A stretch of 64,000 bases of DNA from positions 20,810 to 84,809 of the forward strand of contig CAWBHS010000065.1 in assembly GCA_963788655.1 (NCBI GenBank). The letters are read 5' to 3'. Positions 7,601-52,880 of this stretch are shown here, one piece after another. This stretch comes from an uncultured Verrucomicrobiae bacterium. GTDB taxonomy: Bacteria > Verrucomicrobiota > Verrucomicrobiia > Limisphaerales > JAFGQR01. Every line of letters starts with the position of its first letter. The stretch's first letter is position 1. Below the pieces are notes generated by a model. It was not told the origin of the DNA. It was given only the letters and a program-made list of their open reading frames with translations, and made no database searches. Position numbers and translations under genes: made by a program.

Positions 7601-10600
7601 ATGCCGGTCATTCACTGTTGGTGATCGAGCACAATCTCGACGTGATCAAATGCGCCGATTGGATCATCGACCTGGGACCCGAAGCCGGCGAACGCGGCGG
7701 CCAGGTCGTTGCCAGCGGCACCCCGGAGGACATTGCCGCATGCGATGCCAGCCATACCGGCCAATTCCTGCGGACCGTCTTGCCAACACCGAAATCCCCT
7801 CGTGGCAGCCGACGTGAGGAGGCTCAAATTTCATCGAAAGACGATTCTGTTCTCGCCAAGAATGAGCCTCCTTACGTCGGCTGCTACGATTCTTCAGACA
7901 AGACCGTAAGTCCTACGGCTGGAGCTTTACGGGAAGCATCTACGTCCAGCGTCTCGCCGCGCGCTTTACCGACGGTCCATCGCAATTCGAGCATCACCAT
8001 CCTCGGCGCGCGCGAGCACAATCTGAAGGATCTCGCTCTCGACATTCCGCGCGACCAATTCGTGGTCGTGACCGGCGTCAGCGGTTCGGGCAAAAGCACG
8101 CTGGCGTTTGACCTGTTGTTCGCCGAAGGCCAACGCCGGTTTCTCGATTCGATGAACACCTACGCCCGACAGTTCGTCGAGCAAATGGCGCGGCCCGACG
8201 TGGACCTCATTGCCGGACTGCCGCCGACGGTCAGCATCGAGCAGCGCACCACCCGCGGCGGCGGCAAGAGCACCGTGGCCACGGTGACCGAGGTGTACCA
8301 TTTTCTGCGGCTGCTCTTTGCGCGGCTGGGGACGCAGCATTGTCCCGACTGCCAATTGCCGGTGGAGGCCCAGACCCGCGACCAACTCGCGCGCGGCCTG
8401 ATGGCCGAACTCAAACAACGCGGCGCGCTGCGCCTGCTGGCGCCCGTCGTCCGCAACCGCAAAGGCTTTCACTCCGACGTAGCCGACTGGGCCGCCAAAC
8501 ATGGCTACGCCGAAATCCGCGCGGATGGAAAATTCTACGACACCGGGAAACCCTTTCGCCTCGACCGCTTCCGCGAACACGACGTGGAGATTGCCGTGGG
8601 CCGCCTGGATTCCCGAGGCACGCGCTCCGGACGGCAACTCATCGAGGAAGCTCTCAAACTTGGCCAGGGCGCGCTCTTCGCCCTGGACCAGCGCGACAAG
8701 CTATCCATTCACTCGACCGAACGCGCCTGCCCTCGATGCAGCCGTTCGTTCGCGCCGCTGGATCCAAAGATGTTCAGCTACAATTCCGCGCAAGGTTGGT
8801 GTCCTCGTTGCCGCGGCTTCGGTGAAATCTTTTATATGCCGGAGGACGTGGATCGTGGAGAACGCGCCGATGCCATCGAGGAAACGTGGTTCCGATGGAT
8901 GGAGGACCAACGAGAGGTGTGCCCGGAGTGTCACGGCGCGCGCTTGAATCCCATTGCGCGAGCAGTCCGCTTGTCGCCGGCCGATTCCCGACTGAGCCTC
9001 TCCAAGTCGCGGGCCGGCGCAACGATTGACGACATTTCGCAACTGGCCGTCGAGCCGGCCTACGACGTTTTCCGCTGCCTCAAATTCAAAGGGCGCGCCG
9101 CGGCGATTGCGCGGGACATCCTGCCGGAAATTGCGGAACGGCTCAAATTCCTCACCGACGTCGGACTCGGTTACCTCCAATTAGGCCGCGGCGTGACCAC
9201 CCTCAGCGGCGGTGAAGCCCAACGCATCCGGCTGGCGGCGCAACTGGGCTCGAATCTTAGCGGCGTGCTCTATGTGCTGGACGAGCCAACGATTGGTCTG
9301 CACGCGCGGGACAACGAACAACTGCTCGGCGCGCTGGCGCAGCTCCGTTCGCGCGGCAATTCGCTGGTGGTCGTCGAGCACGACGAAGACACCATGCGCC
9401 ACGCGGACTACATCATCGATCTCGGTCCCGGGGCGGGCATCCATGGCGGGCAACTGGTGGCTGGCGGCACGTTGGACGAACTGCTGCGCCACGACGAGTC
9501 GGTCACCGGCCAATGCTTGCGGGCGCAGGAAACCAAGCAATATCCAACGCGCGGCCAACGGCGGCCGGTCAACGGCGGAAGATCATCTCGCGGGTCACGG
9601 CCTGCCAACAGCCGTGGCTCATCCGTAAATGGCACTACTCGCATTCGGAGCAGGCAACCAGCCACTCAGTGGTTGGTGTTCCGCAAAGCGGCGGTCCACA
9701 ATTTGAAGAACCTCACGGTCCAGTTTCCTTTGAACCGGCTGGTACTAATCACGGGCGTCAGCGGCTCCGGCAAAAGCACCCTGGTTCGCGAATGCCTGTT
9801 GCCCGCGCTGAATGAAGCGCTCAAACCGCGCCGGTCGCGTGCCGCGGCGACGAAGGGGACGCTCACTGGCTACGAAGCGCTTAAGGCGGTCTATGAGGTT
9901 GATCAATCGCCCATTGGCCGGACGCCGCGTTCGGTGCCGGCCACCTACGTGGGTTTCTTCGACGAGATTCGCCGCCTGTTTGCCCAGACGCCCGAGGCCC
10001 GTTTGCGCGGCTATGGGCCGGGACGATTTTCCTTCAACAGCAAACAAGGCCGTTGCCCCGAATGCGAAGGCGCGGGCATCATCAAACTGGAAATGAACTT
10101 CCTGCCGCCCGCGTTTGTGCGCTGCGAACGCTGCGGGGGCTCGCGCTTCAATCGCGAAACGCTCGACATCGAATACGCCGGCAAGACCATCGCGCAGGTG
10201 CTCGAAATGAGCGTCGAGGAAGCGCTCCGGTTCTTCTCCGGCATTCCCAAAATCCGGCGGGCGCTCGAAGCCCTGCACGACACCGGCCTCGACTATTTGA
10301 AGCTGGGCCAAACCAGCCCAACGCTGAGCGGCGGCGAAGCACAACGGGTGAAGCTGGTAACGCATTTGCTGACCGGCTTAAAGCCGCAGCTCGAATTGAC
10401 TGATCCCAACGACCCGAAGCAGAAACGCAATCTCTTCATCCTGGAAGAACCGACCATCGGCTTGCACATCGCGGACGTGCGCCGCTTGGTCGAAGTGCTG
10501 CAACGGTTGGTGGACGCCGGACATTCCGTGATCGTCATCGAGCACAATCTCGACCTCATTGCCGAGGCGGACTGGGTGATTGACCTGGGCCCGGAAGGCG

Positions 10601-10713
10601 GCGATGACGGTGGCCGAATTGTGATGGCCGGCACACCTGAAGAGATCGCCCGTCACCGGCCCTCGCACACGGGGCGGTTCTTGCGGAAGATGTTGAAACG
10701 GCGAAAACGTTGA
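4644..10713 (+). CDS. uvrA: Excinuclease ABC subunit A, tandem-duplicated (two UvrA units, ~2,020 aa); frameshift near 5110
   Basis: Four Walker A motifs ([32 protein letters not shown]), four LSGGE signatures, many CxxC zinc fingers; GGAGG at 4635-4639 before ATG 4644. Confidence 0.95.
7802..7887. repeat. GTAG-type REP-like inverted doublet, in-frame in the UvrA inter-unit linker
   Basis: Arms gtggcagccgacgtgaggaggctc (7802-7825) and gagcctccttacgtcggctgctac (7864-7887), 22/24 complementary. Confidence 0.85.
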
Positions 10714-13020: not shown

Positions 13021-14232
13021 ATGCCGTCATACGTTTACGTCGCGAGAGAAACGGGGAGCGGACGAGAAATTCGCAACAGCCTCGAGGCTGCCTCCGAGCA
13101 GGCGGCCATCGCCGCCCTGCTGAATCGCAATTTGCTCGTCGTCTCCATCCAGGAGCGCATCGGTAAAAAGGGTAAAACCTCCGGAGGCAAGGTCAACCTG
13201 GCGGATCTGGTGGTATTCACCCGCCAATTGGCCACCATGATCGACGCCGGTCTGGCCATGGTGCAATCATTGCAGGCGCTGGCCGACCAGACCAAGAACA
13301 AGGCGATGCGCGATGTCATCCGCGACGTTTGCACCCGGGTCGAAGGGGGCGACAGTTTTTCCGAAGCCCTGAGCAAGCATCCCAAGGTGTTCGCCCGGCT
13401 TTACGTGTGCATGGTGGGCGCCGGCGAGCGGGGCGGTTTGTTGTCGGAGATTCTCAGCCGCCTGGCCACTTACCTGGAAAATGCGGCGCGCCTGCGCAAG
13501 AAGGTCAAATCGGCCATGATGTATCCGACGGTCGTCACGATTGTGGCCATCGGGATCACCATTTTCCTGCTGATCAAAGTCGTGCCGGTGTTCGGGGACG
13601 TTTACAAAGGCTTCGGGGCGAAATTGCCCGCTCCGACGATGGCGTTGCTGGCAGTCAGCAACGCAACCCAGAAGTACATTCTCTACATTCTCCCGGCCAT
13701 CATCGGTATGGTTTACGCCTGGATTGCCTACATCAAGACCGCTTCGGGACGCGAGTTTTGGGATCGCCTCCGCATTAAGCTGCCGATCTTCGGTTCGATT
13801 GCCCACAAGATTTGTCTGGGCCGGTTCACGCGCACCCTGGCGTCGCTGATCCGCAGCGGCGTGCCCATCCTTGAAGTGCTGCAAATCGTCTCCAACACCG
13901 TCGGCAACGTGATCATGGAGAAAGCGGTGCGGGCGTCGGCGGCCGATATCGAGCGTGGCGAAAGCATTTCGTCTTCGCTGGGCAAGCATCAGATCTTTCC
14001 CTCGATGATCATCCGGATGGTGACCGCCGGCGAACAGACCGGCAAGATCGAGCAGATGTTGGAACAGATCGCCGATTTTCTGGACGAAGAAATGGAAACG
14101 ACTTTGTCCGGTTTGACCTCTCTCATCGAACCCTTGTTGATCGTGTTTCTGGGCGTGACGGTGGGCGGTATCGCCATCTGCATGTTCCTGCCGATCTTCA
14201 AGATGAGCGAAATCATCAATCCGCCTAAATGA
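13021..14232 (+). CDS. pilC: Type IV pilus / T2SS inner-membrane platform protein (PilC/GspF)
   Basis: FTRQLATMIDAGL, AGERGG, KVKSAMMYP, GEQTG, LIEP, MFLPIF; two T2SSF repeats. Confidence 0.92.
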   Translation: MPSYVYVARETGSGREIRNSLEAASEQAAIAALLNRNLLVVSIQERIGKKGKTSGGKVNLADLVVFTRQLATMIDAGLAMVQSLQALADQTKNKAMRDVIRDVCTRVEGGDSFSEALSKHPKVFARLYVCMVGAGERGGLLSEILSRLATYLENAARLRKKVKSAMMYPTVVTIVAIGITIFLLIKVVPVFGDVYKGFGAKLPAPTMALLAVSNATQKYILYILPAIIGMVYAWIAYIKTASGREFWDRLRIKLPIFGSIAHKICLGRFTRTLASLIRSGVPILEVLQIVSNTVGNVIMEKAVRASAADIERGESISSSLGKHQIFPSMIIRMVTAGEQTGKIEQMLEQIADFLDEEMETTLSGLTSLIEPLLIVFLGVTVGGIAICMFLPIFKMSEIINPPK

Positions 14233-14308
14233 CGGTGACGGCCGCGAGTCGCCAGGAACTCGCGCGGATGAAATTGGAGTCCGGACGCGAGTCCGGGCTC
14301 CAATTGGT

Positions 14309-15654
14309 TTAGGGTTGGAAGGGATTGAGCATCCGAATGCGCCGGTCGTTGCCCAGTTCAACCGCTTCCCAATCGAGGAAATAGGAACACTTTTTGTCCA
14401 GGATTTCGTGCATCAACCGGCTGCGCAAATGGGCCCGCGAATTGGGGGGCGGCCGCGTCATCGCCTGGCGCAAGCCCGCGGCCGGCCACAAATCGCCGGG
14501 TTCGGCCATGGCGATTCCCAAACTCCGCTTCGGGTGAATCTGGTGAAACTCGAGATCCTGTGACTCGAGCCAGGGATCGCCCCATTCCAACCCTTCGCGG
14601 GTGCAGAATTCACGGAACAGATATTCCTTGCTCACCCAATCCAACTTACCCACCAACGTCAGGGGATCCGCGGCGAGACTTTCAATGACCTGGCCCCAGA
14701 GCGTGAGCAACGCGTCGGTTTCCGTGTCCCGCCCCTGGAAATTTCTTTTGGCCTTTTGATATACACCTCGAGGAGTTCGAGCGCATCGGCCGGTTTGCCA
14801 TCGGCCAGCGTCACACTCCAGGGCGGCCGCAAATTGCGCGAGAGCGTCCGCAGCGAGGTGACGGCGTCCAACAGGGCCAGTTCCGGCAAATCGTCGGCGT
14901 CCAGGAGGTCCAACACGAGACGGGTGGTGCCGACTTTCAGGAACAAAGCCCGCGGTAGCACATTGCTGTCGCCGTGAATGAGGTGCAACCGACGGAACAA
15001 CCGCGGATCGGCCAAGGGTTCGTCGCGCGTGTTAATGATGGCGCGATTGTGTTGCACCCACTCGAAGAAATCATTTTGGATGTAGTCGGCCCGCTGGCTG
15101 ATTTGAAAGAGAGCCGGATTCTCGCGCATCACAATTTCACCGCGGAACCGGGTTGGCCGGATGGCTCCCACCCTGCCCGAGCCGGAATAGAGGACCCGCA
15201 ACGTCAGAAAGGCCAGCAAGGACAACACGTTCTTCTCGTGCAGCGGCGCCTTGCGGTCGAGGGAATAATTCTCATGACAACCAAACGTCGCCCCGGTGTG
15301 ATGATCGACATTGTTGCGGATGATGCTGACGCGAGTTTCCAGACCCAAGTCGCGCACGGCTTCGAGCAGAAGCATGTCGCCGGCCCGATCGTAATGCACA
15401 ACTTCGGTGGCGGTGGTACATTCCGGGGTGCAATACTCCAGGTGCCCCATGTCGATGTAAACCCGGCCCCCGTTGAAAAGAAATCCTCCGTTGCCGGCCG
15501 GTTCATCCCAATCCCGGTCATGCCGGTCAATCAAACCGTAGCGGTGTTTTTCGAACAACCAGTCCCGAATGCGCGGCAGGAGATCCGACGCCTGGACGGG
15601 CGGCTCGACCAAACATCCGTATTCAGTTTCAATGCCTGTAATGCGACGTGACAT
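14309..15654 (-). CDS. pafA: Pup/UBact-protein ligase (PafA family); frameshift near 14760
   Basis: GIETEYG, FLFNGGRVYIDMGHLEYCTPEC, GCHENY, IINTRDEPLAD, RLHLIHGDSN; second frame has LDWVSK and DLEFH. Confidence 0.9.
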
Positions 15655-15789
15655 GTTTCAAAGACTTACGGGCCCTGCCCTTTTGGTGACAAGCCCGGAC
15701 TCCCACAATCGTTCCCTTGCGCCGGCCACGGGTGAGTTCCTGCCGCGCACGCCCCGTTTCGTTCTTTGGGTGAAACAAGTCGGGGTTGG

Positions 15790-16503
15790 TTACCCGAGCT
15801 TCAATTCCTGATATTGCACCGAGCCGGCGCGTTGCCGATCCAACCACCCGGCTTCCACCGTCTTACCCGAGATCGACAGCAGCGGCTCGGACGGCAGAGC
15901 CAATTCAGCGAAGGTTTTGCCTTCCGTCACTGCTTGCCAGGCGGTCAGGCAGGCGGAGGCGACTTGGTCCAGGGAATCCTTGGCCCGCAGATGTTCCTGG
16001 AGCCAGCGGGTGGCATCTTCTTCCACTTTGGGATCGCTGCACGCCACCAGCACGCCGGAGGTTTCATAACGGTGGTTGCCGTCAAAGTGCAGACGCACCA
16101 GCACGTCCTGCTCCGGCGATTCCCCCAGTTCGGCAAAAACGGCTTCGACGATTAGCGGCGGCGAAAAGATCTGTTCGAAACTATTCTTGAACGAAGGACT
16201 CAGCGCAAAACTGATCAGGCGGCGCAACGTGACGTCTTTGGGCGACCGGGTGAAGCCCTCGAGATGAGCCGCTTCAATGGCCGACTGACGGACTTTCTCG
16301 ATGTCCACCGGATGGCCAAGCGCCGCAAAACCGTGCCGGTTGTAAATCTCGAACACTTTGGAATGCCCGTGCCCAACGCCCAGCAGCAAAATGCCGGTCG
16401 GTCGGGAGACCGCAAACACCGGTGTGCCGCCTTTGAGTTGCTCGCGGATGTACTCCCGGCGATTGCCGATGGCCTCCAACCAACGATACGGTTCTTCGGT
16501 CAT
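15790..16503 (-). CDS. prcA: 20S proteasome alpha subunit
   Basis: MTEEPY start, SKVFEIYNR, DVTLRRL; start overlaps the beta-subunit stop; operon context. Confidence 0.85.
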   Translation of the reverse strand: MTEEPYRWLEAIGNRREYIREQLKGGTPVFAVSRPTGILLLGVGHGHSKVFEIYNRHGFAALGHPVDIEKVRQSAIEAAHLEGFTRSPKDVTLRRLISFALSPSFKNSFEQIFSPPLIVEAVFAELGESPEQDVLVRLHFDGNHRYETSGVLVACSDPKVEEDATRWLQEHLRAKDSLDQVASACLTAWQAVTEGKTFAELALPSEPLLSISGKTVEAGWLDRQRAGSVQYQELKLG

Positions 16504-17258
16504 GACTGGGATTCTTTCCAAAACCGGGCCTGCTCCTCCGGGCTGATCGAGCGGACTCCCTCGCGCGACAACACTTTGATGGTGGCAAACAACTTCCGAT
16601 CCGGGTGAACGCCGCCGGTGGCCGTGTCAAATTCCGCCGCGGTCATCAGCAGGCGATTGGCCAAACTGCAAGCCGGTCCTAAGGCCATCTCTTCCGGTCG
16701 CGGTTTCCCCCATTTCTCCAGGTAGTGAAGGACGCTCTTGATGCTGGCGGAACCGGAACCGCTGCCGGCGTATTGAGCCGCTTCAAACTGGGCGCCCAAC
16801 GGATCGTAAAATTGAATTACCGGTTTGGCATCAGGCTCGTTGACCTCGACCCCGGCAAAAATCGGAGAAACCGCCCCAAAGCCTTGAATGGTCGCCGGAA
16901 TGTTATCGCGGAGCAATTTGGACAACGCCCGAATTTTGGCCGGCACACTCATGGATTGCAACTGGCTGCGGCGATAAAACTCGAAGGTGGTTTGCAGCGT
17001 GCGCGCCATTTCGAACGCGGTGGCCGGCACGCCCGCAATTGCCATGAGCGAGTGCGAATCCAACTCCAGGATCTTGTCCGTCTTGTCGGAGAAGATCAGG
17101 TTACCGGCCGTGGCCCGATGGTCGCCGGCGATCACCACTCCATCGGCACAATGGAAGGCAAACACCGTCGTCGCCTCCAACGGCAACGGTCCACCGCTCG
17201 GCACCCCGAGCGCCGGCAGTGGGTTCTTCGGCAGCAAGGCCAGAAAATCGCCGTTCAT
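16500..17258 (-). CDS. prcB: 20S proteasome beta subunit (29-aa propeptide then catalytic Thr)
   Basis: PLEA|TTVFAF, AGDHRATAG, DKI, GSGSGS, DTATGG Ntn-hydrolase motifs. Confidence 0.92.
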   Translation of the reverse strand: MNGDFLALLPKNPLPALGVPSGGPLPLEATTVFAFHCADGVVIAGDHRATAGNLIFSDKTDKILELDSHSLMAIAGVPATAFEMARTLQTTFEFYRRSQLQSMSVPAKIRALSKLLRDNIPATIQGFGAVSPIFAGVEVNEPDAKPVIQFYDPLGAQFEAAQYAGSGSGSASIKSVLHYLEKWGKPRPEEMALGPACSLANRLLMTAAEFDTATGGVHPDRKLFATIKVLSREGVRSISPEEQARFWKESQS

Positions 17259-17427
17259 TGCCCCGTGCGCTGGCGATAGCGTCGGGCCTGGTCCGGATCC
17301 ACCTTGCGCATGCGCTTCAGCAACTCCTCGGTGTTGGGTTTATCGACTTGCGGGGCGCGTGGCCCGTCACCCCTCCTCCCCCGGGTGCCGGAGCGGTCGG
17401 ACGTGGTTTTTGAATTCTTTCTGGCAT
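17255..17427 (-). CDS. ubact: UBact ubiquitin-like modifier (~57 aa); one base missing in the G-rich tract at ~17370-17382
   Basis: Manual translation MPERIQKPRPTAPAPGGG/GDGPRAPQVDKPNTEELLKRMRKVDPDQARRYRQRTGQ*; C-terminal R[TS]G[EQ] signature; sits between dop and prcB; stop overlaps the prcB ATG. Confidence 0.9.
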
Positions 17428-17446
17428 ACAGTTAACTACTACATCA

Positions 17447-18967
17447 CTAAAGCACCTTTGCAAAGTTCAGGTGGATTAAATCTTCCACCGCCTCGGCAGC
17501 GCTGATGACCTTCAAACTCTGTCGGACCTGGATCGGATCGAACAAATTGCGCAGATCCAGTTCAACGCGTTGCCGACTGCCGCGCAGCAACAGGTAGTCC
17601 CATTGCGTGGCTTCCACCGCGCTACCGAATTTCTCAATGCAACGGCCGCGTACCGCCGCGCGGGTGGTATGCGGCGGGCACATGCTGTGATGAGAAATCT
17701 CCGGCAGCGAATACGGGAGCCGAAAGGCCTTCTGGCCCATCAAGCCGTAGAATAGACCCAGGTCGCGATCCAGTTGGTGATAGGTCAGGTCGAGGCTGCG
17801 CAACCACGGATCCTCCGGGGACAGATGCTCCAATTCACGGAATTGCTCGACAAGTTTGTATTTGGCCGCCCAGTCCAGGCGATCGGCAGTGGCCAATGGA
17901 TCACGTTCCAAGTCGCCCAAGATTTCCTCCCAGGCCTGGATCAGTTGGCGCCAGTCGGCATCAAGGTCGGGACAAAATTCCTTCACCAGTTCCACGTAGC
18001 GTTGCTGCACGGCGAGCGCCGTAGTTGGTCGGCCTTCAGCTTCCTGGCAGTGCCACTTCCACGTCGTGTCACGGGAGATGCGTTTCAGGGTCTGAAGCGG
18101 ATCGCCGAGATCGGGTACGCGTTCGACGGGTGCGCCGTTCAGCAGGGCCTGCAATACCAGGGCGGTAGTGCCGATCTTCAAATAGGTCGAATAAAACGAC
18201 AAATTGGCATCGCCAATGATCACGTGGAAGCGGCGGTACACCTCGTTGTTGGCGTGCGGTTCGTCGCGGGTATTGATGATCGGCCGGCGCTGCATTGTGT
18301 CCACACTTTGCAACTCGGAGAAGAAGTCGCTGCGCTGCGAAATTTGGAAACCCGGACCGAGGAACTTGTCTTCGTCTTCCCAGCCGAACTTGCCGGCGCC
18401 GCAATAAATCTGGCGCGTAATCAGGAAGGCGAGCACGCCTTGTGTCAGCCGGTCCCAGGTCAAGGTGCGGGGCATCAGATAATTCTCGTGGCAGCCGTAG
18501 CTATGCCCCCGAAAGTCGGTGTTGTTCTTGTAGAGCACCACCGGGTTGTCCGAGCCTTGACTCACCACGCGGGCGCATTCCAGCAGCAGGCAGTCGCCCT
18601 GGTAGTCCTGCTGCAGAATTTCGAGCAACGTGCTGCACTCGGGCGTGCAATACTCGGGGTGGGCATGATCGTTGTAAAAGCGGCCGCCATTGCGCAGCAC
18701 CATGTCGCTCTTGATTTCGTGGAAGGTGAGCGAGCGTTGGGCATCCTGCGCAAAGTAATGATTTTCGTCGCGGTCCTGGAGCAGTTCTTTGACCCGGAAT
18801 CCACGAGCGTCGCAGTGAGGATCTTCGCAATTGTAATCCCAGCGCATCCGTACCCCCGGCGCTTTGGTGGCCCGAACCAACGCGATGGACTCGGCCACGA
18901 CATCCACTTCCGCGGGCTGCTGGCGGGAGATGCCGATCTCTGTTTCAATGCCGAATTGAATATCCAT
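17447..18967 (-). CDS. dop: Dop-family deamidase/depupylase (PafA2)
   Basis: GIETEIG, LRNGGRFYNDHAHPEYCTPEC, SYGCHENY, RPIINTRDEPHA, RFHVIIGDAN, LDWAAK. Confidence 0.9.
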   Translation of the reverse strand: MDIQFGIETEIGISRQQPAEVDVVAESIALVRATKAPGVRMRWDYNCEDPHCDARGFRVKELLQDRDENHYFAQDAQRSLTFHEIKSDMVLRNGGRFYNDHAHPEYCTPECSTLLEILQQDYQGDCLLLECARVVSQGSDNPVVLYKNNTDFRGHSYGCHENYLMPRTLTWDRLTQGVLAFLITRQIYCGAGKFGWEDEDKFLGPGFQISQRSDFFSELQSVDTMQRRPIINTRDEPHANNEVYRRFHVIIGDANLSFYSTYLKIGTTALVLQALLNGAPVERVPDLGDPLQTLKRISRDTTWKWHCQEAEGRPTTALAVQQRYVELVKEFCPDLDADWRQLIQAWEEILGDLERDPLATADRLDWAAKYKLVEQFRELEHLSPEDPWLRSLDLTYHQLDRDLGLFYGLMGQKAFRLPYSLPEISHHSMCPPHTTRAAVRGRCIEKFGSAVEATQWDYLLLRGSRQRVELDLRNLFDPIQVRQSLKVISAAEAVEDLIHLNFAKVL

Positions 18968-19072
18968 AAAATCTGGTGCTGGCGCGAAAGGTTTCCTTGG
19001 GCCGCCAGTATAGGGGATTTGACGGAGCCGGAAGTGCCGCATTCATTCCCATCAAACCAGGCAATCCATGCG

Positions 19073-20770
19073 CTAAATTGTTCCGGACGAGTTGGTGGAG
19101 TCCGCGGTGCGATACGGCGCGAGTCGCACGACATTGCCCGGATCAAAATCCGTCAGTTTAAGCCAGTCCTCCGTGATGTCGCTAGGCGGGAACAGATCGT
19201 TTTCGCGATATTCGCAGTTTAGCGCTTGCTGCAAATCCTGGAGGGCTAACGGCGACTCCGTCTTGACCGCAATAGACCGCTTGATGGCGTATTCCTTGGC
19301 CCGTTCGACAATTGCCGCAATGATGGCTCCGCTGGCCAGATCGCCACGGAATAAATAGTCGTGTTTGCCACTGCGGTAGGTGATGTCCAAAAACCGGTTG
19401 TCCTCCGATTTGGCATAGTGCTGGTCGGCGATCTTCTTCACCAATTCCGGCTGCGGTGTTTCCAACGGCAGATCGGACGTCAGGTAAATCCGGTATATTT
19501 CCTCCGCCGCTTCCTTGTTTGGACGTTTCACGCGAATCTTCCGGTCAATGCGCCCCGGACGCAAGATGGCGGGATCGATCAAGTCGGCGCGATTGGACGC
19601 CAAGATCACCACGACGTTTTGCAGCGGTTCCAAGCCGTCCATCTCCGTGCAGAACATCGGCACGAGCGTGGACAGAATACTGGTTCCGCCGCGGAGCGCG
19701 TGCCGGGTGCCCAAGATGGATTCGGCTTCATCAATGAACAGAAAGGCCAGGTGGCCTTCGGCGGCTTTCTCGCGGCACTGGGCAAACAGGTCGCGCACCT
19801 GCCGCTCCGATTCGCCCAGCCACATGTTGAGGATTTCCGGACCCTTGACGGTGAGGAAGAATTCCGGGCGATCTTCGCCGGTTTCGGCCTTGATTTGCTG
19901 CCGCAAATTGTGAGCGGTGGCTTTGCCCAACAAGGTTTTGCCGCAACCCGGCGGCCCGTAGAGCAGGAAGCCTTTGGGCACGGGATGATTGAACCGCTTG
20001 AACAAGTGCGCGTGGAGGAACGGCAGTTCGATCGAGTCGCGAATCGCCTCGACCGCTTCCTGTTGTCCTCCAATCTTGTTCCAAGGCAATTGCTCAACCC
20101 GAGCCAGGGTGCGATCGGCGCGCTTGGCGGTGCCAATGATTTCCACCGCCACGCGTTGATTGGCGTCCAAACGCAGGTCAAGTCCGGCTTTCAATTTCTC
20201 TTTCACCAGCAGCGACGAACGCGCGACGATCAGATCGGAAATGCCGGTTTCATTGCCGACCCGCAAACGGCCGTCGGTGAGCAATTCCATAACTCGCACC
20301 ACGGGACCGTTTTGATCGAACTCGAAGGCGTCAATCACGGCAAAGGCTTCATTGAGCAACACCCGTACACCGGTATCGAGGCTGTCCTTGGGCAACGAAG
20401 GATCGACGCTGCAGACGTAATCCGATCCATTCGCGCAAACCAGCGCGCGATCCTTGCCCAACTTTTGGAGCAACGTGCCCAATCGCAACGCGGGCGACCG
20501 GAGTTTTTCCACCGCTTCGCTGAGCTTCTCCACCGCGTGACGGGCCTGGTCCTGGACCTCTTCCATTTCCTGAATCCGCCGCCGTAACAGAGACATGTCC
20601 GCGGACATCGCCCCCTGCAGAGCCATCTTATGGGTAATGAGATCCACCAACTGGAGGGCCGACATCTGTTCGACCTGCTCTTCCGGGACCGCTTCCTCAA
20701 TCGCGGGGAACTCAAAATCCGTTGCCCGATGGGTCGCGGACTGTGCTCGGCTCTTGCTCGATTTGTTCAC
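19073..20770 (-). CDS. arc: Proteasome-associated AAA+ ATPase (ARC/Mpa family)
   Basis: N-terminal coiled coil, OB-like interdomain, GPPGCGKT, VKGPEILN, FIDEAE, RPGRIDRKI; start position uncertain. Confidence 0.92.
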   Translation of the reverse strand: MNKSSKSRAQSATHRATDFEFPAIEEAVPEEQVEQMSALQLVDLITHKMALQGAMSADMSLLRRRIQEMEEVQDQARHAVEKLSEAVEKLRSPALRLGTLLQKLGKDRALVCANGSDYVCSVDPSLPKDSLDTGVRVLLNEAFAVIDAFEFDQNGPVVRVMELLTDGRLRVGNETGISDLIVARSSLLVKEKLKAGLDLRLDANQRVAVEIIGTAKRADRTLARVEQLPWNKIGGQQEAVEAIRDSIELPFLHAHLFKRFNHPVPKGFLLYGPPGCGKTLLGKATAHNLRQQIKAETGEDRPEFFLTVKGPEILNMWLGESERQVRDLFAQCREKAAEGHLAFLFIDEAESILGTRHALRGGTSILSTLVPMFCTEMDGLEPLQNVVVILASNRADLIDPAILRPGRIDRKIRVKRPNKEAAEEIYRIYLTSDLPLETPQPELVKKIADQHYAKSEDNRFLDITYRSGKHDYLFRGDLASGAIIAAIVERAKEYAIKRSIAVKTESPLALQDLQQALNCEYRENDLFPPSDITEDWLKLTDFDPGNVVRLAPYRTADSTNSSGTI

Positions 20771-21074
20771 AGTGGAACTATACGACAGGTTGGTATTCGC
20801 GCAAACGAGGGTGGGAAGTTTTCGCGGTAGTTTTGCAGTCAACGGTTGCTGCACCCACCACTGTTCTCGACGAGCACCCGGGAGTGCTCCCCGTCAGGGG
20901 TGGGTACGGGCTGGCTGTGCAGCACGACTATCGCGCAGAATGGACTTCAGCCATCCCATTCGCTGTTGGTTCAGCGTTTCAACTTTTCGCCCCTTCTCTC
21001 CTTCACCCTCCGTTACGGAGCAAATCCGAATTCAATGGCCTCCCCGGATCCGGTTGGTTAGGTAAAAATGATAG

Positions 21075-21120
21075 TTAGAATTATTCCAATTATTGACAAG
21101 CCTCCGGCACTTGTTAGATT
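21075..21120 (+). promoter_or_regulatory. Fur-family operator (Per/ICE-like 7-1-7 palindrome) and sigma70 promoter
   Basis: TTAGAAT-T-ATTCCAA at 21075-21089; TTGACA at 21093-21098; TGnTAGATT extended -10 at 21112-21120. Confidence 0.7.
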
Positions 21121-21128
21121 GCCGCAGG

Positions 21129-21569
21129 ATGAAATCGGTGGGCAATACGATTGATGGCCGGCGGTTGAACGAACGGCTGGCCACGAGCGGGCTGCGCTTC
21201 ACGGCGCAGCGCCGCCACGTTTATGAAGTGCTCCTGCAAAAACAGGATCACCCGTCCGCCGAAGAAATCTTTATCCGGGCCAAGAAGGGTATGCCGGAAA
21301 TTTCCATGGCCACGGTGTACAATTGCGTGGATACGCTGGTAAAGTGCGGCTTGGTGCGGTTGGTGCATTTGGATCGCGGCCCGACCCGCTATTGTTCCAA
21401 TATGCGGGAGCACGGACATTTTTACTGCGATGTCTGTGGCAGCGTTTATGATTTCGACCTGGCCCGAAATGCGCCGCCCGCCGAATTGCAACTGCCGCGC
21501 GGCTACAAGGCCAGCCATTACGAGATTGCCGTCCATGGCGTCTGCCCGGATTGTGCGGACGCAAAGTGA
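21129..21569 (+). CDS. Fur/PerR-family transcriptional regulator
   Basis: GLRFTAQR, DHPSAEEIF, ISMATVYN, HGHFYCDVC, GVCPDC. Confidence 0.92.
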   Translation: MKSVGNTIDGRRLNERLATSGLRFTAQRRHVYEVLLQKQDHPSAEEIFIRAKKGMPEISMATVYNCVDTLVKCGLVRLVHLDRGPTRYCSNMREHGHFYCDVCGSVYDFDLARNAPPAELQLPRGYKASHYEIAVHGVCPDCADAK

Positions 21570-21638: not shown

Positions 21639-23087
21639 ATGAGTTCAGCCACGGAAACCATCGAAGGCTTTGTCAAACGCGAGTACAAGTACGGGTTCTA
21701 CACCGACATGGAAGCCGACTCTGCGCCTCCCGGTTTGAATGAGGACATCATTCGGTTCATCTCGCTCAAGAAAGAAGAACCGGAGTGGCTTTTGGAATGG
21801 CGGTTGAAGGCGTACCGGCACTGGTTGACGATGAAGGTGCCCGCCTGGCCGAAGGTCCACTACCCGCCGGTTAACTTTCAGGACATCGTGTATTACTCGG
21901 CGCCCCGCGGACAGGTCAACGCCCCCAAGAGCTTGGACGAAGTGGATCCCAAACTGCTCGAGACCTACGAAAAACTGGGCATTCCCCTGAAGGAACGTGA
22001 ACGTCTGGCCGGGGTCGCGGTGGACGCGGTGTTTGACAGTGTGTCGGTGGGCACCACGTTCAAGGAGCGGCTGGCGGAGAAAGGCATCATCTTCTGCTCG
22101 ATCAGCGAAGCGGTACGGGAACACCCGGAACTGGTGCGCAAGTACCTCGGCACGGTGGTTCCGTACAAGGACAATTTCTACGCGGCATTGAATTCCGCGG
22201 TGTTTACCGACGGATCCTTTTGTTACATCCCCAAAGGCGTGCGGTGCCCGATGGAACTGTCCACCTATTTCCGCATCAACGCCGCCAAGTCCGGCCAGTT
22301 CGAACGCACCCTCATTGTGGCCGAGGAAGGCGCGTATGTAAGTTACTTGGAAGGCTGCACGGCCCCAATGCGCGATGAGAACCAGCTTCACGCCGCGGTC
22401 GTCGAACTGCTCGCGTTGGAGCGGGCGGAAATCAAATATTCGACCGTGCAAAACTGGTATCCGGGCGATGAACAAGGACGCGGCGGCATTTACAACTTCG
22501 TGACCAAGCGCGGCCTGTGTAAAGGTCGCAATTCGAAGATCTCCTGGACCCAGGTCGAAACCGGCTCAGCGATCACGTGGAAATATCCGAGCTGCATCCT
22601 CCAAGGCGAGAATGCCGTGGGCGAATTCTATTCCGTGGCGCTGACCAACAATTACCAACAGGCGGACACGGGCACCAAGATGGTTCACATCGGCAAGAAC
22701 ACCCGGAGCACGATTGTGTCCAAGGGCATTTCCGCCGGACACGGCCAGAACAGCTACCGCGGCCTGGTCAAAGTGCAGAAGAGCGCCGCCCACGCGCGTA
22801 ATTTCTCGCAGTGCGACTCGCTGTTGATTGGCGACCAGTGCGGCGCCCACACGTTTCCTTACATCGAAGTGAAAAACACCTCGGGCCGGGTCGAGCACGA
22901 GGCGACCACTTCGAAGATTGGCGAAGACCAAATTTTCTATTGCAACCAACGGGGCATTTCCACGCAGGACGCGGTGAACATGATCGTCAACGGTTTTTGC
23001 AAAGAAGTGTTCCGTGAGCTGCCGATGGAGTTCGCCGTGGAAGCCCAAAAACTGCTGGGCGTGAGCCTGGAGGGTAGCGTAGGTTAG
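21639..23087 (+). CDS. sufB: Fe-S cluster assembly protein SufB
   Basis: [41 protein letters not shown]-terminus. Confidence 0.97.
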
Positions 23088-23147
23088 CTGGCCGGACAGG
23101 AACACGAACCGACCGGTGCCATGGTGGTGTCGGAGGCGGGCAAAACT

Positions 23148-23642
23148 ATGGCAGAAGGCTTTTTCGACACAGCGCAGATTTGCAAGAACGGTCATCTGGT
23201 GAACGACAGCATGAAACGGTTTCCCGAAGCCAATTCACTATTTTGCTCCAAATGCGGCGAACCCACCATCACCGAGTGCGAAGCGTGCCACACGCCCATC
23301 CGCGGTTACTATCAGGTGCCGGGCGTCATCGGCTATTCCGAACGCAAAAAGGTGGCGCCGAACTTTTGCCACCACTGCGGCAAGACGTATCCCTGGACCG
23401 ACCGCTGGCTGCAAACCAGCCGGGAAATGGTGAACGAGCTGGACGAATTGGCGCCGCCGGATCGGGAGCAGTTTCAACGCTGTCTGCCCGACTTGGTGCG
23501 GGAAGGCCCGGCCACGGAACTGGCGGCAGTGCGCGTCCGGAAGATTATGAAGAAGCTCAACAAAGAGACCTATGAACTGACGCGAATGGTCATTGACGAG
23601 CAGTTGAGCGAACCGGCGCGCAAAACCTTGTTTGGATTGTAA
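23148..23642 (+). CDS. Cys-rich zinc-ribbon protein (DUF2321-like)
   Basis: AQICKNGH, FCSKCG, CEAC..PIRG, FCHHCGKTYPWT. Confidence 0.7.
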   Translation: MAEGFFDTAQICKNGHLVNDSMKRFPEANSLFCSKCGEPTITECEACHTPIRGYYQVPGVIGYSERKKVAPNFCHHCGKTYPWTDRWLQTSREMVNELDELAPPDREQFQRCLPDLVREGPATELAAVRVRKIMKKLNKETYELTRMVIDEQLSEPARKTLFGL

Positions 23643-23718
23643 AACGCGCGAGGGGCGCACCGCCGATGGCGGGAACAATTTACTAATGAAGTAAGCGACG
23701 AGAACGAACAAAGAAGAC

Positions 23719-24489
23719 ATGACTCAACCAATCCTTGAAATCAAAAACCTGAGTGCCGGGGTCGAGAACAAACAGATTCTCAAAGGCATCAACCTGACCG
23801 TCAATCCCGGCGAAGTCCACGCCGTCATGGGCCCGAATGGCAGCGGCAAGAGCACCCTCGCCGCGGTGCTCGCCGGTCGCGCCGGCTACGAGGTCAACGG
23901 CGGTGACGTGCTTTATCTGGGGCAGAACCTGCTCGAATTGGCTCCGGAAGAACGCGCTCGCGAAGGGCTCTTTCTCGCGTTCCAATACCCGGTGGAAATT
24001 CCCGGAGTCAACAGCACCTACTTTTTGAAAGCAGCCTACAACGAGATCCGCAAACACAAAAGCCAGCCCGAGCTCGACGCCATGGAGTTTCTCGAACTGG
24101 TGAAGGAGAGGATGAAGCTGTTGCACCTGCCGGATGACTTGCTCAAGCGTCCGGTGAACGAAGGGTTCTCCGGCGGCGAGAAAAAACGGAATGAGATCTT
24201 TCAAATGGCGGTGCTGGAACCGCGCCTGGCCGTGCTCGATGAAACGGATTCCGGCCTGGACATTGACGCGCTTAAAGTCGTGGCCAACGGCGTCAACAAA
24301 TTGAAAAGCGCCGACAACGCCCAGCTTGTCATCACCCATTACCAACGGCTGCTGAATTACATTGTGCCGGACTTCGTGCATGTCTTGTACGACGGCCGGA
24401 TCGTCAAATCCGGCGGCAAAGAGCTGGCGTTCGAACTCGAGGAAAAAGGCTACGACTGGATCATCAACCCGGAGCCTGTCCCAGCCTGA
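23719..24489 (+). CDS. sufC: Fe-S cluster assembly ATPase SufC
   Basis: GPNGSGKST, FQYPVEIPG, FSGGEKKRNE, LDETDSGLD, ITHYQRLL. Confidence 0.97.
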   Translation: MTQPILEIKNLSAGVENKQILKGINLTVNPGEVHAVMGPNGSGKSTLAAVLAGRAGYEVNGGDVLYLGQNLLELAPEERAREGLFLAFQYPVEIPGVNSTYFLKAAYNEIRKHKSQPELDAMEFLELVKERMKLLHLPDDLLKRPVNEGFSGGEKKRNEIFQMAVLEPRLAVLDETDSGLDIDALKVVANGVNKLKSADNAQLVITHYQRLLNYIVPDFVHVLYDGRIVKSGGKELAFELEEKGYDWIINPEPVPA

Positions 24490-24514
24490 TCCGACAACCC
24501 GTTTAAGGAACCAC

Positions 24515-25900
24515 ATGGTGACTGCTCTTCCCGCCAATTCGAATCAAGTCCTGAAAGAAACCGGCCCCTACTGGGACAAGTTCGCGCGGCTGCAAAAGGT
24601 CCTCCACGATCCGGACTGGGTGGCGGCGGCGCGCAAAGCGGCGATGTCCCGCTTCACCGAATTGGGCTTCCCCACCTTGCAGGATGAAGACTGGCGCTTC
24701 ACCAATCTGGCGCCGCTGGTCAAGCTGCCCTTTCGTCCACAGTTTGCGCTGCCCACCGAGGGTTTGACCCGCGACATCTTGGAACCGCTGGCCTTTGCCG
24801 GCGGCAACGGACCGCGGTTGGTATTCGTCAACGGCCATTTCGCCCCGGAACTTTCCACAGTAACTTCGCTGCCGGACGGCGTGATCGTGAGCAGCCTTGC
24901 CGCCGCGCTGGCGAAGGAGCCGGAACTGTTGCGGAAGCATCTATTCCGCGTGGCGAAAACCGAGGCCAATGCCTTTGCGGCTTTGAACACCGCGTTCTTC
25001 CAGGACGGCCTGTTCATTTATGTTCCTGCAGGCCAGGTTGTCTCCGAACCGGTGCAAGCGGTTTATGTCTCCACCGCCAAAGAAAATGGCGGCACCGCGC
25101 ACCCGCGCAATTTGATCGTGGCCGAAGCCAACAGCCAATTGACCTTCCTCGAGAATTACGTCAGCGCCACGACGGCGGCACATTTTACCAACGCCGTGAC
25201 CGAATTGGTGGCGGGCGACAATGCGCAAATCGAACACGTCAAATACCAAAACGAAGGTCTGCAGGCCTTCCATTTGGCGGCGCTGCAATCCGACCTGGGC
25301 CGCAACTCTCGGGTGGCGATGCATTCGTTTGCCCTCGGCGCCCGGCTTTCCCGGAACAACATCGACACCTATCTCGGCGGCGAAGGGCTGGAGTGCATGT
25401 TGAACGGTCTGTACGTGACTCGTGACGACCAACTGGCCGACCATCACATGGTGGTCGAACACGCCCAGCCTCATTGCGACAGTCACGAGTATTTCAATGG
25501 CATTCTCGCCGACCGATCCAAAGGGGTCTTCCACGGACGCATCCTGGTGCAGCCCGGTGCGCAAAAGACCGACGCCAAGCAAACCAACAAAAACTTGCTG
25601 CTTTCCGACGACGCCACGGTCGATACCAAACCGCAACTGGAGATTTACGCCGACGACGTGAAATGCACCCACGGCGCTACCATCGGCCAGTTGAACGAGG
25701 AATCCATTTTCTATCTCCGCTCGCGCGGCATCGGACTCGAAACCGCGCGCCGGATGTTGATTCATGCGTTTGCCGGCGAAATCATCGAACGCATTCGCCA
25801 TCCGGCGGTGCGCGAGGAACTCGATCAAATTATTTGGGACCGCCTGGAAGAACATCCGTTGGTGGGTGAAAAACATGACGCCGCGTTGGTCGAAGCCTGA
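24515..25900 (+). CDS. sufD: Fe-S cluster assembly protein SufD
   Basis: EDWRFT, QKTDAKQ, TKPQLEIYADDVKCTHGAT, FYLRSRGI. Confidence 0.95.
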   Translation: MVTALPANSNQVLKETGPYWDKFARLQKVLHDPDWVAAARKAAMSRFTELGFPTLQDEDWRFTNLAPLVKLPFRPQFALPTEGLTRDILEPLAFAGGNGPRLVFVNGHFAPELSTVTSLPDGVIVSSLAAALAKEPELLRKHLFRVAKTEANAFAALNTAFFQDGLFIYVPAGQVVSEPVQAVYVSTAKENGGTAHPRNLIVAEANSQLTFLENYVSATTAAHFTNAVTELVAGDNAQIEHVKYQNEGLQAFHLAALQSDLGRNSRVAMHSFALGARLSRNNIDTYLGGEGLECMLNGLYVTRDDQLADHHMVVEHAQPHCDSHEYFNGILADRSKGVFHGRILVQPGAQKTDAKQTNKNLLLSDDATVDTKPQLEIYADDVKCTHGATIGQLNEESIFYLRSRGIGLETARRMLIHAFAGEIIERIRHPAVREELDQIIWDRLEEHPLVGEKHDAALVEA

Positions 25901-25947
25901 ACCAATGGAACGTTTGAAATCCCCCCACCACTGGCCGTGCGCAGCCT

Positions 25948-26403
25948 ATGTTTGACGACTTAACCGATTTGTATCAGCAGGTCATTCTCGACCACAGCAA
26001 GAGCCCGCGTAATTTCCACAAGCTCGAGGGCGCCACCCACACCGCGCGCGGCCAAAACCCGTTGTGCGGCGACAACGTCACGCTCTATCTGCAAACCGAA
26101 GGCGACGTCATCAAGGACATCAGTTTCGAAGGTTCGGGCTGCGCCATTTCGAAGGCTTCGGCCTCGTTGTTGACTGCCGCGCTCAAAGGTAAAACCAAGG
26201 CCGAAGTGAAAGCGCTGTTCGACAAAGTTCACGATATGGTGACCACCGGCAAAGGCAGCGGCGAAGTCGGCAAACTCTCAGTGTTTGCCGGCGTCCATAA
26301 ATTTCCCGCGCGCGTCAAATGCGCCATTCTCCCATGGCACGCCGTCATGGCTGCCTTGGAAGGAAAACAGGAGCCGGTGAGCACGGAGAAAGAGGACACT
26401 TGA
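25948..26403 (+). CDS. sufU: SufU (NifU-family) sulfur-transfer protein
   Basis: LYQQVILDH, NPLCGD, GCAISKAS, ARVKCA. Confidence 0.93.
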   Translation: MFDDLTDLYQQVILDHSKSPRNFHKLEGATHTARGQNPLCGDNVTLYLQTEGDVIKDISFEGSGCAISKASASLLTAALKGKTKAEVKALFDKVHDMVTTGKGSGEVGKLSVFAGVHKFPARVKCAILPWHAVMAALEGKQEPVSTEKEDT

Positions 26404-26460
26404 TTGGCGCTCAACTGATGCCGTTTGTGCAAAAAACGTTTTCCCAAGATCTTTCAACCT

Positions 26461-27030
26461 ATGGACACGAATGAATCCGTAACGCTCGTTCGCGACGTCG
26501 AAGCCGCCATGGTGCCCGCGGGCACCCCGGTCACTTTGGAGAAAGGTGTTTCCGCCCGCATTACCCAATCGCTGGGCGGCACTTATACCGTCGTAGTCAA
26601 TGGCAACATGTTCCGCATCGACAGCCGGAATGCCGACGCGTTGGGACTCAAGCCGGAAACACCATCCGCCGCGCCCGCCACGGAAGCGGGTCCGGGTAAA
26701 TCCACGACGCCGGAAGACTTGGAAAAGCAGGTCTGGGACGAGTTGAAGAACGTTTACGATCCGGAGATCCCAGTCAATATCGTGGACCTCGGGCTCGTGT
26801 ACGATTGCACGGTCAGCCCGCTCGGAACGGACAACACGTTCAAAGTCCACGTGCGCATGACCCTGACCGCGCCCGGTTGTGGCATGGGACCCATGATTGC
26901 CCAGGATGCCCAGAACCGCCTGCTCTCCCTCGAACCCGTCGATGAAGCCGAAGTCGAGTTGGTGTGGGATCCGCCATGGAACCAAGACATGCTGTCCGAA
27001 ACCGCCAAATTGCAGCTTGGATTGATGTAG
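26461..27030 (+). CDS. sufT: Fe-S assembly protein SufT (DUF59)
   Basis: ITQSLGG, YDPEIPVNIVDLGL, MTLTAPGCGMG, WDPPW. Confidence 0.9.
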   Translation: MDTNESVTLVRDVEAAMVPAGTPVTLEKGVSARITQSLGGTYTVVVNGNMFRIDSRNADALGLKPETPSAAPATEAGPGKSTTPEDLEKQVWDELKNVYDPEIPVNIVDLGLVYDCTVSPLGTDNTFKVHVRMTLTAPGCGMGPMIAQDAQNRLLSLEPVDEAEVELVWDPPWNQDMLSETAKLQLGLM

Positions 27031-27042
27031 GATCGCAATTCC

Positions 27043-28305
27043 ATGACCACGGAAAACGCCACCTCATCTGCCGCCACCCAGTCGGTCGATTGGCCCTCAT
27101 TGCGCGCTGACTTTCCCATTCTCGATCAGCAGGTCAACGGCAAGCCCTTGATCTATTTTGACAATGCGGCAACGTCGCAAAAACCGCGGGCCGTGATCGA
27201 GGCCTTGCGCCATTATTACGAGCACGACAACGCCAATGTCCACCGCGGTATTCACAAGCTGAGCAACCGGGCCACCGCCGCCTTTGAAGCCGCGCGGGAA
27301 CGCACCGCGAAGTTCATCAATGCCCATAGCGCCGAGGAAATTGTCTTCACGCGCGGCACCACCGAGGGCATCAACTTGGTCGCCCAGGCTTGGGGTTCCC
27401 AGCATCTTCAGCGCGGCGACAAAATTCTGCTCACCGAGATGGAGCACCACAGCAACATCGTGCCCTGGCAACTGCTGGCGAAACGCAGCGGCGCGCAACT
27501 GGTGTATTTACCCGTAACCGGTGATCTGGGTTTGATCGATTTCTCCCGACTCGACGATTGGCTGACCCCGGAGGTCAAACTGGTTTCGCTGACCCATATC
27601 TCGAACTCACTCGGTACGATCAATCCGGTAGCCGAAGTCTGCGCGAAAGCGCGAAAGCGCGGTATCACCACGCTCGTCGATGCGGCCCAAAGCGCGGGCC
27701 ACCGGAAGCTTGATGTTCAGGAGATCGGCTGCGATTTCCTGGCGTTCAGCGGACACAAAATGTGCGGGCCCACCGGTTTCGGCATTCTTTATGGCCGCGC
27801 CGAGCAATTGGAAGCCATGCCCCCATACCAGGGTGGCGGCGAAATGATTCTGTCCGTGGATTTCCAAGAGACGACCTTCAAGCAAGCGCCGCACAAGTTT
27901 GAAGCGGGCACGCCCGACATCTCCGGCGCCATCGGGCTGCACGCCGCGATGGATTATCTGGACCGGATCGAGCGCGATAACATTGCCCGGCACGATCTGG
28001 AACTGGGCGCCTACGCGTACGAAAAGCTCGCGCAACTGAAGAACATTCGCCTCTTTGGACCCGCCACCGGCCGGGCTGGCTTGGTAAGCTTTTTGTTGAA
28101 AGACATCCACGCGCATGACGTGGTGACGGTGGCGGACCAATTCGGCGTGGCCCTGCGCGGTGGGCACCATTGCAATCAGCCGTTGATGCACAAGCTGGGC
28201 GTCGAATCCACGGCCCGCGCCAGTTTCTATTTTTACAACACCACCGCCGAAATTGACCGGTTCGTGGAAGTCATTCGTGAAATCCAGAAATTCTTTGGTG
28301 CGTAA
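27043..28305 (+). CDS. sufS: Cysteine desulfurase SufS
   Basis: DNAATSQKP, EHHSN, FSGHKM (PLP Lys), RGGHHC. Confidence 0.96.
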   Translation: MTTENATSSAATQSVDWPSLRADFPILDQQVNGKPLIYFDNAATSQKPRAVIEALRHYYEHDNANVHRGIHKLSNRATAAFEAARERTAKFINAHSAEEIVFTRGTTEGINLVAQAWGSQHLQRGDKILLTEMEHHSNIVPWQLLAKRSGAQLVYLPVTGDLGLIDFSRLDDWLTPEVKLVSLTHISNSLGTINPVAEVCAKARKRGITTLVDAAQSAGHRKLDVQEIGCDFLAFSGHKMCGPTGFGILYGRAEQLEAMPPYQGGGEMILSVDFQETTFKQAPHKFEAGTPDISGAIGLHAAMDYLDRIERDNIARHDLELGAYAYEKLAQLKNIRLFGPATGRAGLVSFLLKDIHAHDVVTVADQFGVALRGGHHCNQPLMHKLGVESTARASFYFYNTTAEIDRFVEVIREIQKFFGA

Positions 28306-29411: not shown

Positions 29412-29423
29412 ATCTTCAGCGGC

Positions 29424-29642
29424 CACAGCCGCACCAAGGCGCATCGTCAATGGCGCGGCCAGGAGTTTCAGCGCGACCTCCAAGCCCGCGGGATTTACGT
29501 CCCCAGCACCTCCTGGGCAGGACTGGCCGAAGAAGCCGGCGGCGCGTACAAGGACATAGATGAGGTTATCGAAGCGTCTGACCTCGCCGGATTGTGTCGG
29601 CGCGTAGTGCGGCTGACGCCCATCGGTAACATCAAAGGTTGA
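29424..29642 (+). pseudogene. rtcB: C-terminal remnant of RNA ligase RtcB
   Basis: Manual translation SRTKAHRQWRG...LAEEAGGAYKDIDEVIEASDLAGLCRRVVRLTPIGNIKG*; no start codon, in-frame TAA at 29409. Confidence 0.8.
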
Positions 29643-42945: not shown

Positions 42946-42958
42946 GCGGCGGCAGGCG

Positions 42959-52600: not shown

Positions 52601-52821
52601 GCGGCGGCCAACAGCACGGCCACGAGCGCCAGCGTGAATCCGAAATAGCGCCGCACCAGGTCCTGGTCGAGCAGACTGCACCCGACCACCACTCCGATCA
52701 GCAGGCCAATTCCCAGCAATCCGGCCGCGAACCAGGCGCCGCGACGGTGCGGGCGCCGCGGCAATTCGTCGGCACCGCCACGGGCGCGCCAACGGTCGAG
52801 CATATTTAATCGCCAATTCAT
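49638..52821 (-). CDS. Membrane PAS/GAF sensor histidine kinase (~4 PAS, 1 GAF); frameshift near 49858
   Basis: Two N-terminal TM segments; GIAHEINTP H-box; NLIINAAHA; manual translation of the shifted tail gives FEPFFTTKPVGQGTGQGL...QHRKAA*. Confidence 0.88.
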
Positions 52822-52880
52822 CGGCCTCGATTACGGTTTTGCCTCGCCATCCAGATTGGAAGAGTCATGTCGTTCATGGT

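Follow-up and report, generated by a model that had tools for sequence, protein, structure and literature searches.

UBact, the small modifier of a proteasome-linked conjugation system, was reportedly named in 2017 by Lehmann, Udasin, Livneh, and Ciechanover (BBRC 483:946), whose clusters are said to have the gene order Mpa-Dop-UBact-PrcB-PrcA-PafA. Here, we examine a locus of this kind in a 64,000-nucleotide stretch of DNA from an uncultured Verrucomicrobiae bacterium (assembly GCA_963788655.1, contig CAWBHS010000065.1, positions 20,810 to 84,809), which we call the window. Six genes lie head to tail on its minus strand, from 20854 to 14309, in the order arc/mpa, dop, ubact (57 codons), prcB, prcA, and a pafA-like gene. 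Judged from its sequence, this soil member of the Verrucomicrobiota has a canonical UBact-proteasome operon, a complete and ordinary copy of a system already catalogued. It resembles the UBact clusters of Gram-negative phyla in the tag family, the RYRQRTGQ end of the tag, the gene order, the phylum Verrucomicrobiota, and the coupling of ubact to prcB and of prcB to prcA. Nothing of substance sets it apart from them; here, ubact and the pafA-like gene are each one base short in the assembly.

UBact-proteasome systems are widespread and have their own Pfam and NCBIfam models, and verrucomicrobial Pup-type loci were reported as early as 2008 (PMC2588565). In the passages of that paper that concern such loci, Iyer, Burroughs, and Aravind noted that Pup-conjugation loci occur sporadically in four groups (verrucomicrobia, nitrospirae, deltaproteobacteria, and planctomycetes), with the tag gene adjoining a PafA paralogue and, in most of those lineages, proteasome genes. 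The same passages treat the tags as Pup orthologues, and the roles of Dop and PafA are not yet separated there. With UBact-proteasome operons catalogued in both Pfam and NCBIfam, the locus matters little as a discovery. The actinobacterial Pup-proteasome (Pup, Dop, PafA, Mpa/ARC, and PrcBA) shares with it the enzyme families and the operon logic, and the two Dop proteins correspond end to end, including the Dop-loop. In contrast to the actinobacterial system, the tag in the window belongs to another Pfam family and ends in TGQ rather than GGQ or GGE, the components all score below the equivalog cut-offs, and the ligase falls outside the PafA-equivalog clade and has a hybrid catalytic loop.

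The gene identities, the gene order, and the translational coupling can be read directly from the locus. The best matches of the five non-tag genes are the Dop, Mpa, PrcB, PrcA, and Pup-ligase family models. A preliminary description of this DNA had given the order as arc-dop-modifier-prcB-prcA-pafA, and all six genes were found on the minus strand, either at its stated positions or close to them. The arc/mpa gene, for an Mpa-type proteasomal AAA+ ATPase, occupies 19073 to 20854, and dop, for a homologue of the Dop-type deamidase/depupylase, occupies 17447 to 19042 (531 amino acids [aa]). A gap of 19 nucleotides (nt) separates dop from the ubact gene downstream, which extends over 17255 to 17427, with an ATG at 17427 to 17425 and a TGA stop at 17257 to 17255. 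The coupling by ATGA overlaps noted in the preliminary description is present at both junctions: prcB, the 20S proteasome beta subunit gene (16500 to 17258; 252 aa), has an ATG that overlaps the UBact stop (caATGAac, 17258 to 17255), and prcA, the alpha subunit gene (15790 to 16503), has a likely start at ATG 16503 that overlaps the prcB stop (tcATGAcc, 16503 to 16500). The caller of open reading frames (ORFs) places the prcA start upstream, at TTG 16521. The PafA-like ligase gene (14309 to 15654) is present as two ORFs, one from 15654 to 14659 (331 aa) and one from 14710 to 14309 (133 aa). In a scan of 14000 to 21300, neither promoter-like sites (3 versus 2.1 expected) nor terminator-like sites (8 versus 9.1 expected) rose above chance.

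The modifier gene had been placed at 17255 to 17427 and described as absent from the ORF track, and this holds: it is missing from the ORF list because it is split over two frames, the C-terminal one of which has no start codon. The frame opened by the ATG begins MPERIQKPRPTAPAPGGGG and then meets an early stop, and the adjacent frame ends in GDGPRAPQVDKPNTEELLKRMRKVDPDQARRYRQRTGQ before its stop; neither alone makes a complete ORF, and a single uninterrupted ORF with its own start is not found in the assembly as given. The modifier is hidden only through its shortness and a split that is probably an error of the assembly. Its C-terminal frame exceeds the cut-offs of both UBact models, with 77.9 bits against PF20513 (cut-off, 27.8) and 75.9 bits against NF033388 (cut-off, 35). 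PF20513 was matched in 17 of 41 genomes, comprising the window's own genome and 40 relatives (1 from its genus and 39 from its order). Each of the 16 matching relatives has ubact as an uninterrupted ORF that follows the pattern MPD..QK.RP..GGGG[DE]GP...RYRQRTG[QE], with RTGQ as the C terminus in 13 and RTGE in 3. When the two frames of the window are joined, they reproduce this pattern exactly. The RTGQ end of the window tag also fits the R[TS]G[EQ] that UBact proteins have right before the stop codon. The gene stands beside Dop/PafA-family and proteasome genes, in a layout identical to that of the same-genus genome (G001).

In G001 (locus L021), the same gene order adjoins a pilC-like gene, as it does in the window. 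Three further loci from Verrucomicrobiota, L038, L039, and L041, share the run arc-dop-ubact-prcB-prcA (L045 being the contig of G001 itself), and L043 and L044 have dop-ubact-prcB-prcA with a PafA-like gene further on and no arc upstream. The more distant Verrucomicrobiota loci L042 and L046 to L051 have arc-dop with no ubact or prcBA directly downstream. As a separate observation on the genome pair, the G+C content is 59.6% in the window and 66.6% in a 327-kb sample of G001, a large gap for members of one genus.

The two breaks had been put at about 17375 and 14760, and they lie within a few bases of these positions, with one base missing at each. In ubact, exactly one base is lacking in a run of Gly codons, at about 17370 to 17374, where the window has GGAGG-GGTGAC and the same-genus G001 gene has GGCGGCGGTGAC. 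In the pafA-like gene, a single one-base gap over 1,346 nt (ATCAAAAG-GCC, at about 14752 to 14757) separates the window from the intact 448-aa gene of G001. No other lesion is present in ubact (173 nt) or in the pafA-like gene (1,346 nt). What follows each break is still family-like, the C-terminal part of the PafA-like protein scoring 83.7 bits and the UBact C terminus being complete. Both G001 copies are intact, with 57 codons for UBact and 448 aa for the last gene, and nearly all of the best 120 PafA-like homologues are likewise 448 aa in length, a few having 434 to 479.

The assembly in which these breaks occur has a high background of indels, which we observed directly. The source genome bin contains 8.96 Mb in 115 contigs (N50, 126 kb) and is 86% complete and 5.6% contaminated. 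We searched it by tblastn with 166 coding-like ORFs taken from a 327-kb sample of G001 and obtained frame-split matches, i.e., adjacent pieces in different frames, for 11 of the 96 ORFs whose best match reached at least 50% identity, the pafA-like gene discussed here being one of the 11. These contain 18 events; with 109.5 kb of coding sequence aligned, this is about 1 per 6.1 kb, and therefore about 1.1 breaks would be expected in the 6.5-kb locus, where 2 are seen. In the reverse control, in which ORFs of the window genome were compared with the G001 sample, 4 of 189 were split, with 5 events in 187 kb. Among the broken genes of the window genome are a rho-like gene that changes frame three times at 98% amino acid identity, kbl with two frame changes, and ClpX-like, cinA, sugar porter, and SNF2 helicase genes. 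Both rho-like loci are interrupted, that on C58 by its three frame changes and that on C49 by a TGA within the gene and a piece that lies out of frame; example indel-broken regions are C58:26864-28006, C57:271266-272449, and C49:29457-30677.

The window itself holds further cases, both on the minus strand. A sugar-type ABC ATPase (41424 to 42026 and 41812 to 43164) has the second of its two ABC_tran domains split near 41995, leaving profile positions 55 to 136 in a separate ORF. A PAS/GAF sensor kinase (49641 to 49880 and 49828 to 52830) has a split HATPase_c domain, with an apparent one-base excess at GGGAATTCCC (about 49855) and its DTGTGIP motif going on in the next frame. Because frame-breaking indels occur about once per 6 kb of coding sequence, no pseudogene, split-gene, or hidden-ORF finding from this genome should be given weight before the reads have been checked. 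Downstream of an ORF with a Dabb domain, a 76-codon open frame at 29412 to 29639 on the plus strand has a match to RtcB that is confined to the final 72 positions (PF01139, 355 to 426 of 426); this frame could be what remains of a gene or one more result of an assembly break.

Because the background alone predicts about 1.1 breaks in the locus, we take both breaks to be indel errors of the assembly rather than lesions in the organism, an indirect reading that we consider likely, and by the same comparison the UBact-proteasome system is probably intact and in use in the organism. Several observations pull the other way. The reverse control is imperfect, as G001 ORFs are split as well (4 of 189), and its power is lowered by the fact that query ORFs of the window genome are shortened by their own breaks; at least one flagged query derives from a broken region of that genome. 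Whereas five other inspected indels are single extra bases in the window genome, both indels of the locus are missing bases. Reads are of little help: one public soil-metagenome DNA run matched (9% of sampled words), with no listed piece spanning either site, and over 14000 to 21000 it gave contigs of about 151 to 173 nt at low depth and no indel row at either break. Exact-pattern scans of metagenome contigs for the two break sites, with a variable gap, returned 0 matches each. A sequencing-run search found no RNA runs with the sampled words of the genome. Among the best 120 PafA-like homologues, the closest to the N-terminal part of the window protein is 92.6% identical, and therefore none comes from the same species.

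The same observations bear on the strongest alternative, namely, that the frameshifts are real and that the strain has recently lost both tag and ligase, leaving an operon in decay. Both breaks are, after all, present in the assembly as given, and no reads contradict them. Loss may also be common, 24 of the 41 genomes having no UBact match, a count that in incomplete genomes does not show absence. However, each break is a single base, with the rest of the 173 nt and 1,346 nt undamaged and the parts downstream of the breaks fully family-like. The density of breaks equals that of the assembly background, with about 1.1 expected and 2 seen, and it is difficult to accept as biological that the two rho-like loci of this assembly should both be broken in the same manner. 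We therefore regard decay as unlikely and continue to favor assembly errors at both sites.

A different objection concerns the identity of the tag and not its integrity. The small gene could be an ordinary Pup gene and the locus a Pup-proteasome operon, with UBact merely another name, and this would agree with the 2008 account, parts of which group verrucomicrobial, nitrospiral, and planctomycete small proteins with Pup on the basis of a shared G[EQ] end, gene neighborhoods, and predicted chemistry (PMC2588565). Against this, Pup was absent among the Pfam matches of the small gene, and UBact (PF20513) was the sole family returned at an E value of ≤0.01. The protein ends in RYRQRTGQ, i.e., in TGQ and not in the GG[EQ] of Pup, and its last residues are RTGQ rather than GGQ or GGE. 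The assignment of RYRQRTGQ to UBact and not Pup in the preliminary description is thereby borne out, the PF20513 and NF033388 cut-offs being passed and Pup unmatched. We consider the Pup reading very improbable, and the choice between the two names is a matter of naming and of depth of homology more than of mechanism.

The break in ubact could also be functional, with full-length UBact made only through transcriptional slippage on the G run or a programmed −1 ribosomal frameshift, which would set the tag level. In favor of this reading, the N-terminal frame is conserved as far as the break, which falls within a G-rich run (GGGGGAGGAGGGGTG). The reading is barely credible because none of the 16 relatives, all of them in frame, needs a shift and no X XXY YYZ heptamer lies in the zero frame at the site. 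The G runs have only 4 to 5 bases, the pafA-like gene has an unrelated and similar break, and such breaks occur assembly-wide.

With the UBact assignment and the assembly-error reading retained, we turn to the enzymes. The protein labeled dop in the preliminary description deserves its name. It scores 417.7 bits against the Dop model TIGR03688 (cut-off, 492.3) and 312.9 bits against the PafA model TIGR03686, below the cut-off in both cases, with Dop the best by 105 bits; against PF03136, it scores 460.7 bits. Residues 30 to 486 align with residues 5 to 458 of the solved Dop 4b0r at 319.7 bits, including the loop motif MRWDYNCEDPHCDARGF, the other solved references being the PafA structures 4b0t and 4bjr. 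According to the relevant part of PMC7947786, Dop differs from PafA by the Dop-loop, in which about 40 residues missing from PafA are inserted. In the window protein, this loop is present as RWDYNCEDPHCDARGF (motif RWDY..EDP..DARGF) and aligns with the loops of 4b0r and 7 Dop equivalogs.

A tree of the family gives the same placement. From the best 150 representatives, 110 of 420 to 640 aa were retained, and 90 were scored against NCBIfam, of which 7 pass the PafA cut-off and 16 pass the Dop cut-off. The tree has 69 rows, made up of 66 of the 90 and three locus proteins; 24 were left out by eye, one of them a truncated Dop equivalog and the others rows that matched a model only in part or in two pieces. 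It comes from a quick unrooted IQ-TREE search with support by the Shimodaira-Hasegawa-like approximate likelihood ratio test (SH-aLRT) only, without bootstraps. In this tree, dop falls in a 41-row clade (SH-aLRT, 97) that includes each of the 15 Dop equivalogs used, excludes the PafA equivalogs, and also contains some rows without the Dop-loop.

The last gene, called pafA in the preliminary description, is less clear-cut. Its membership in the Pup-ligase family stands, with PF03136 positions 1 to 312 on the first ORF and 324 to 440 on the second. Residues 2 to 431 align end to end with residues 9 to 442 of PafA 4b0t, the match to the PafA profile starts at position 1, and the motif check in the alignment found no Dop-loop motif in the protein. 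A simple PafA identity is less secure. The Dop model outscores the PafA model on the two fragments (202.5 plus 67.1 bits versus 186.5 plus 57.6 bits) and on the intact G001 orthologue (271 bits versus 249.4 bits, the PafA cut-off being 551.3), scores that count against calling the gene pafA without qualification. The tree groups the PafA equivalogs in an 11-row clade (SH-aLRT, 99) with the pafA-like gene outside it, and the G001 orthologue falls in a separate 9-row clade (SH-aLRT, 96) on the non-Dop side that contains no equivalog, the tree being unrooted. The catalytic loop, YID--MGHLEYCTPE, lies between the YVD--HAHPEYSTPE of Dop and the YLDVGSHPEYATAE of PafA. From architecture and context, we infer a ligase role for this gene as a reasonable reading, one that stops short of demonstrated orthology.

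It is possible, although in our judgment doubtful, that the ligase of UBact loci is not a PafA orthologue but a separate deep lineage of the Pup-ligase family. Such a lineage may lack the Dop-loop, keep the pre-loop helix, and have a catalytic loop intermediate between those of Dop and PafA. This suggestion draws on the 9-row clade without an equivalog, the model scores slightly favoring Dop, and the loop alignment. If it were true, the split that yielded today's PafA would have come after, or been independent of, the point at which the UBact system gained its ligase or diverged from the Pup system. Rooting the tree on the Dop stem would make the 9-row clade simply a divergent PafA. Homologues of the ligase are plentiful, with 4,823 proteins at an E value of ≤1e-10 among the candidates scored from public metagenomes, the top 120 being 70 to 100% identical to the G001 protein.

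The remaining components are an ATPase and a 20S core. The arc gene of the preliminary description is confirmed, and its start remains uncertain, having been put at 20770 in that description and at GTG 20854 (593 aa) by the ORF caller. The match to TIGR03689 (pup_AAA) begins at residue 85 of the longer form and reaches 427.5 bits, below the cut-off of 504.75. Two OB domains (PF17758 and PF16450) and the AAA domain (PF00004) are all above their cut-offs. The protein ends in SSGTI, without a penultimate tyrosine, unlike mycobacterial Mpa, whose docking tail, GQYL, has tyrosine at the penultimate position. The ATPases of 12 relatives (loci L038 to L051, one aberrant long ORF apart) end in SGTI, AAAV, SAAV, CAAV, QSAI, SGIV, AGIV, or SGVV. 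Docking of these Mpa-type ATPases to the 20S core may differ from that in mycobacteria.

Of the core subunits, PrcB passes PF00227 with 82 bits (cut-off, 22.4) and reaches 134 bits against TIGR03690, below the cut-off of 191.9. Its sequence reads LEA|TTVFAFHCADGVVIAGD and further on DK, with a propeptide followed by TTVFAF and with Thr1, D17, and K33 in place, counted from Thr1. PrcA scores 66.7 bits against TIGR03691, below the cut-off of 139.05, and a Pfam search gave no match; the segment MTEEPYRWLEAI is common to the relatives.

By analogy with the Pup system, each biochemical step of the UBact pathway can be predicted. UBact would be made with a C-terminal Gln, which the Dop homologue would deamidate to Glu. 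Such deamidation of the tag before ligation is known from the actinobacterial Pup system, as set out in part of PMC7947786, and the C-terminal Gln of the tag therefore implies the same order of events here. The PafA-like enzyme would then phosphorylate the gamma-carboxylate of this Glu with ATP and join UBact to lysines of target proteins. The Mpa-type ATPase would recognize the tag, unfold the target, and feed it to the PrcAB 20S core, and Dop could also take the tag off. Two points tell against so complete an account. Every enzyme and proteasome model stays below its curated NCBIfam equivalog cut-off, and we found no open-access report of a bench test of UBact conjugation, the word UBact appearing in no title or abstract of the matching papers. 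For a first reconstitution of the UBact system, the intact orthologues in relatives, such as those of locus L021 in G001, would serve well.

Elsewhere in the window, a SUF iron-sulfur cluster operon lies on the plus strand at 21639 to 28302, downstream of a Fur-family gene, with sufB, sufC, sufD, NifU-like, FeS_assembly_P, and sufS genes; a DUF2321 gene sits between sufB and sufC. At 5080 to 10710, also on the plus strand, an open frame of 1,877 aa contains UvrA interaction and DNA-binding domains together with several ABC/P-loop stretches, an ordinary UvrA being about half this size.

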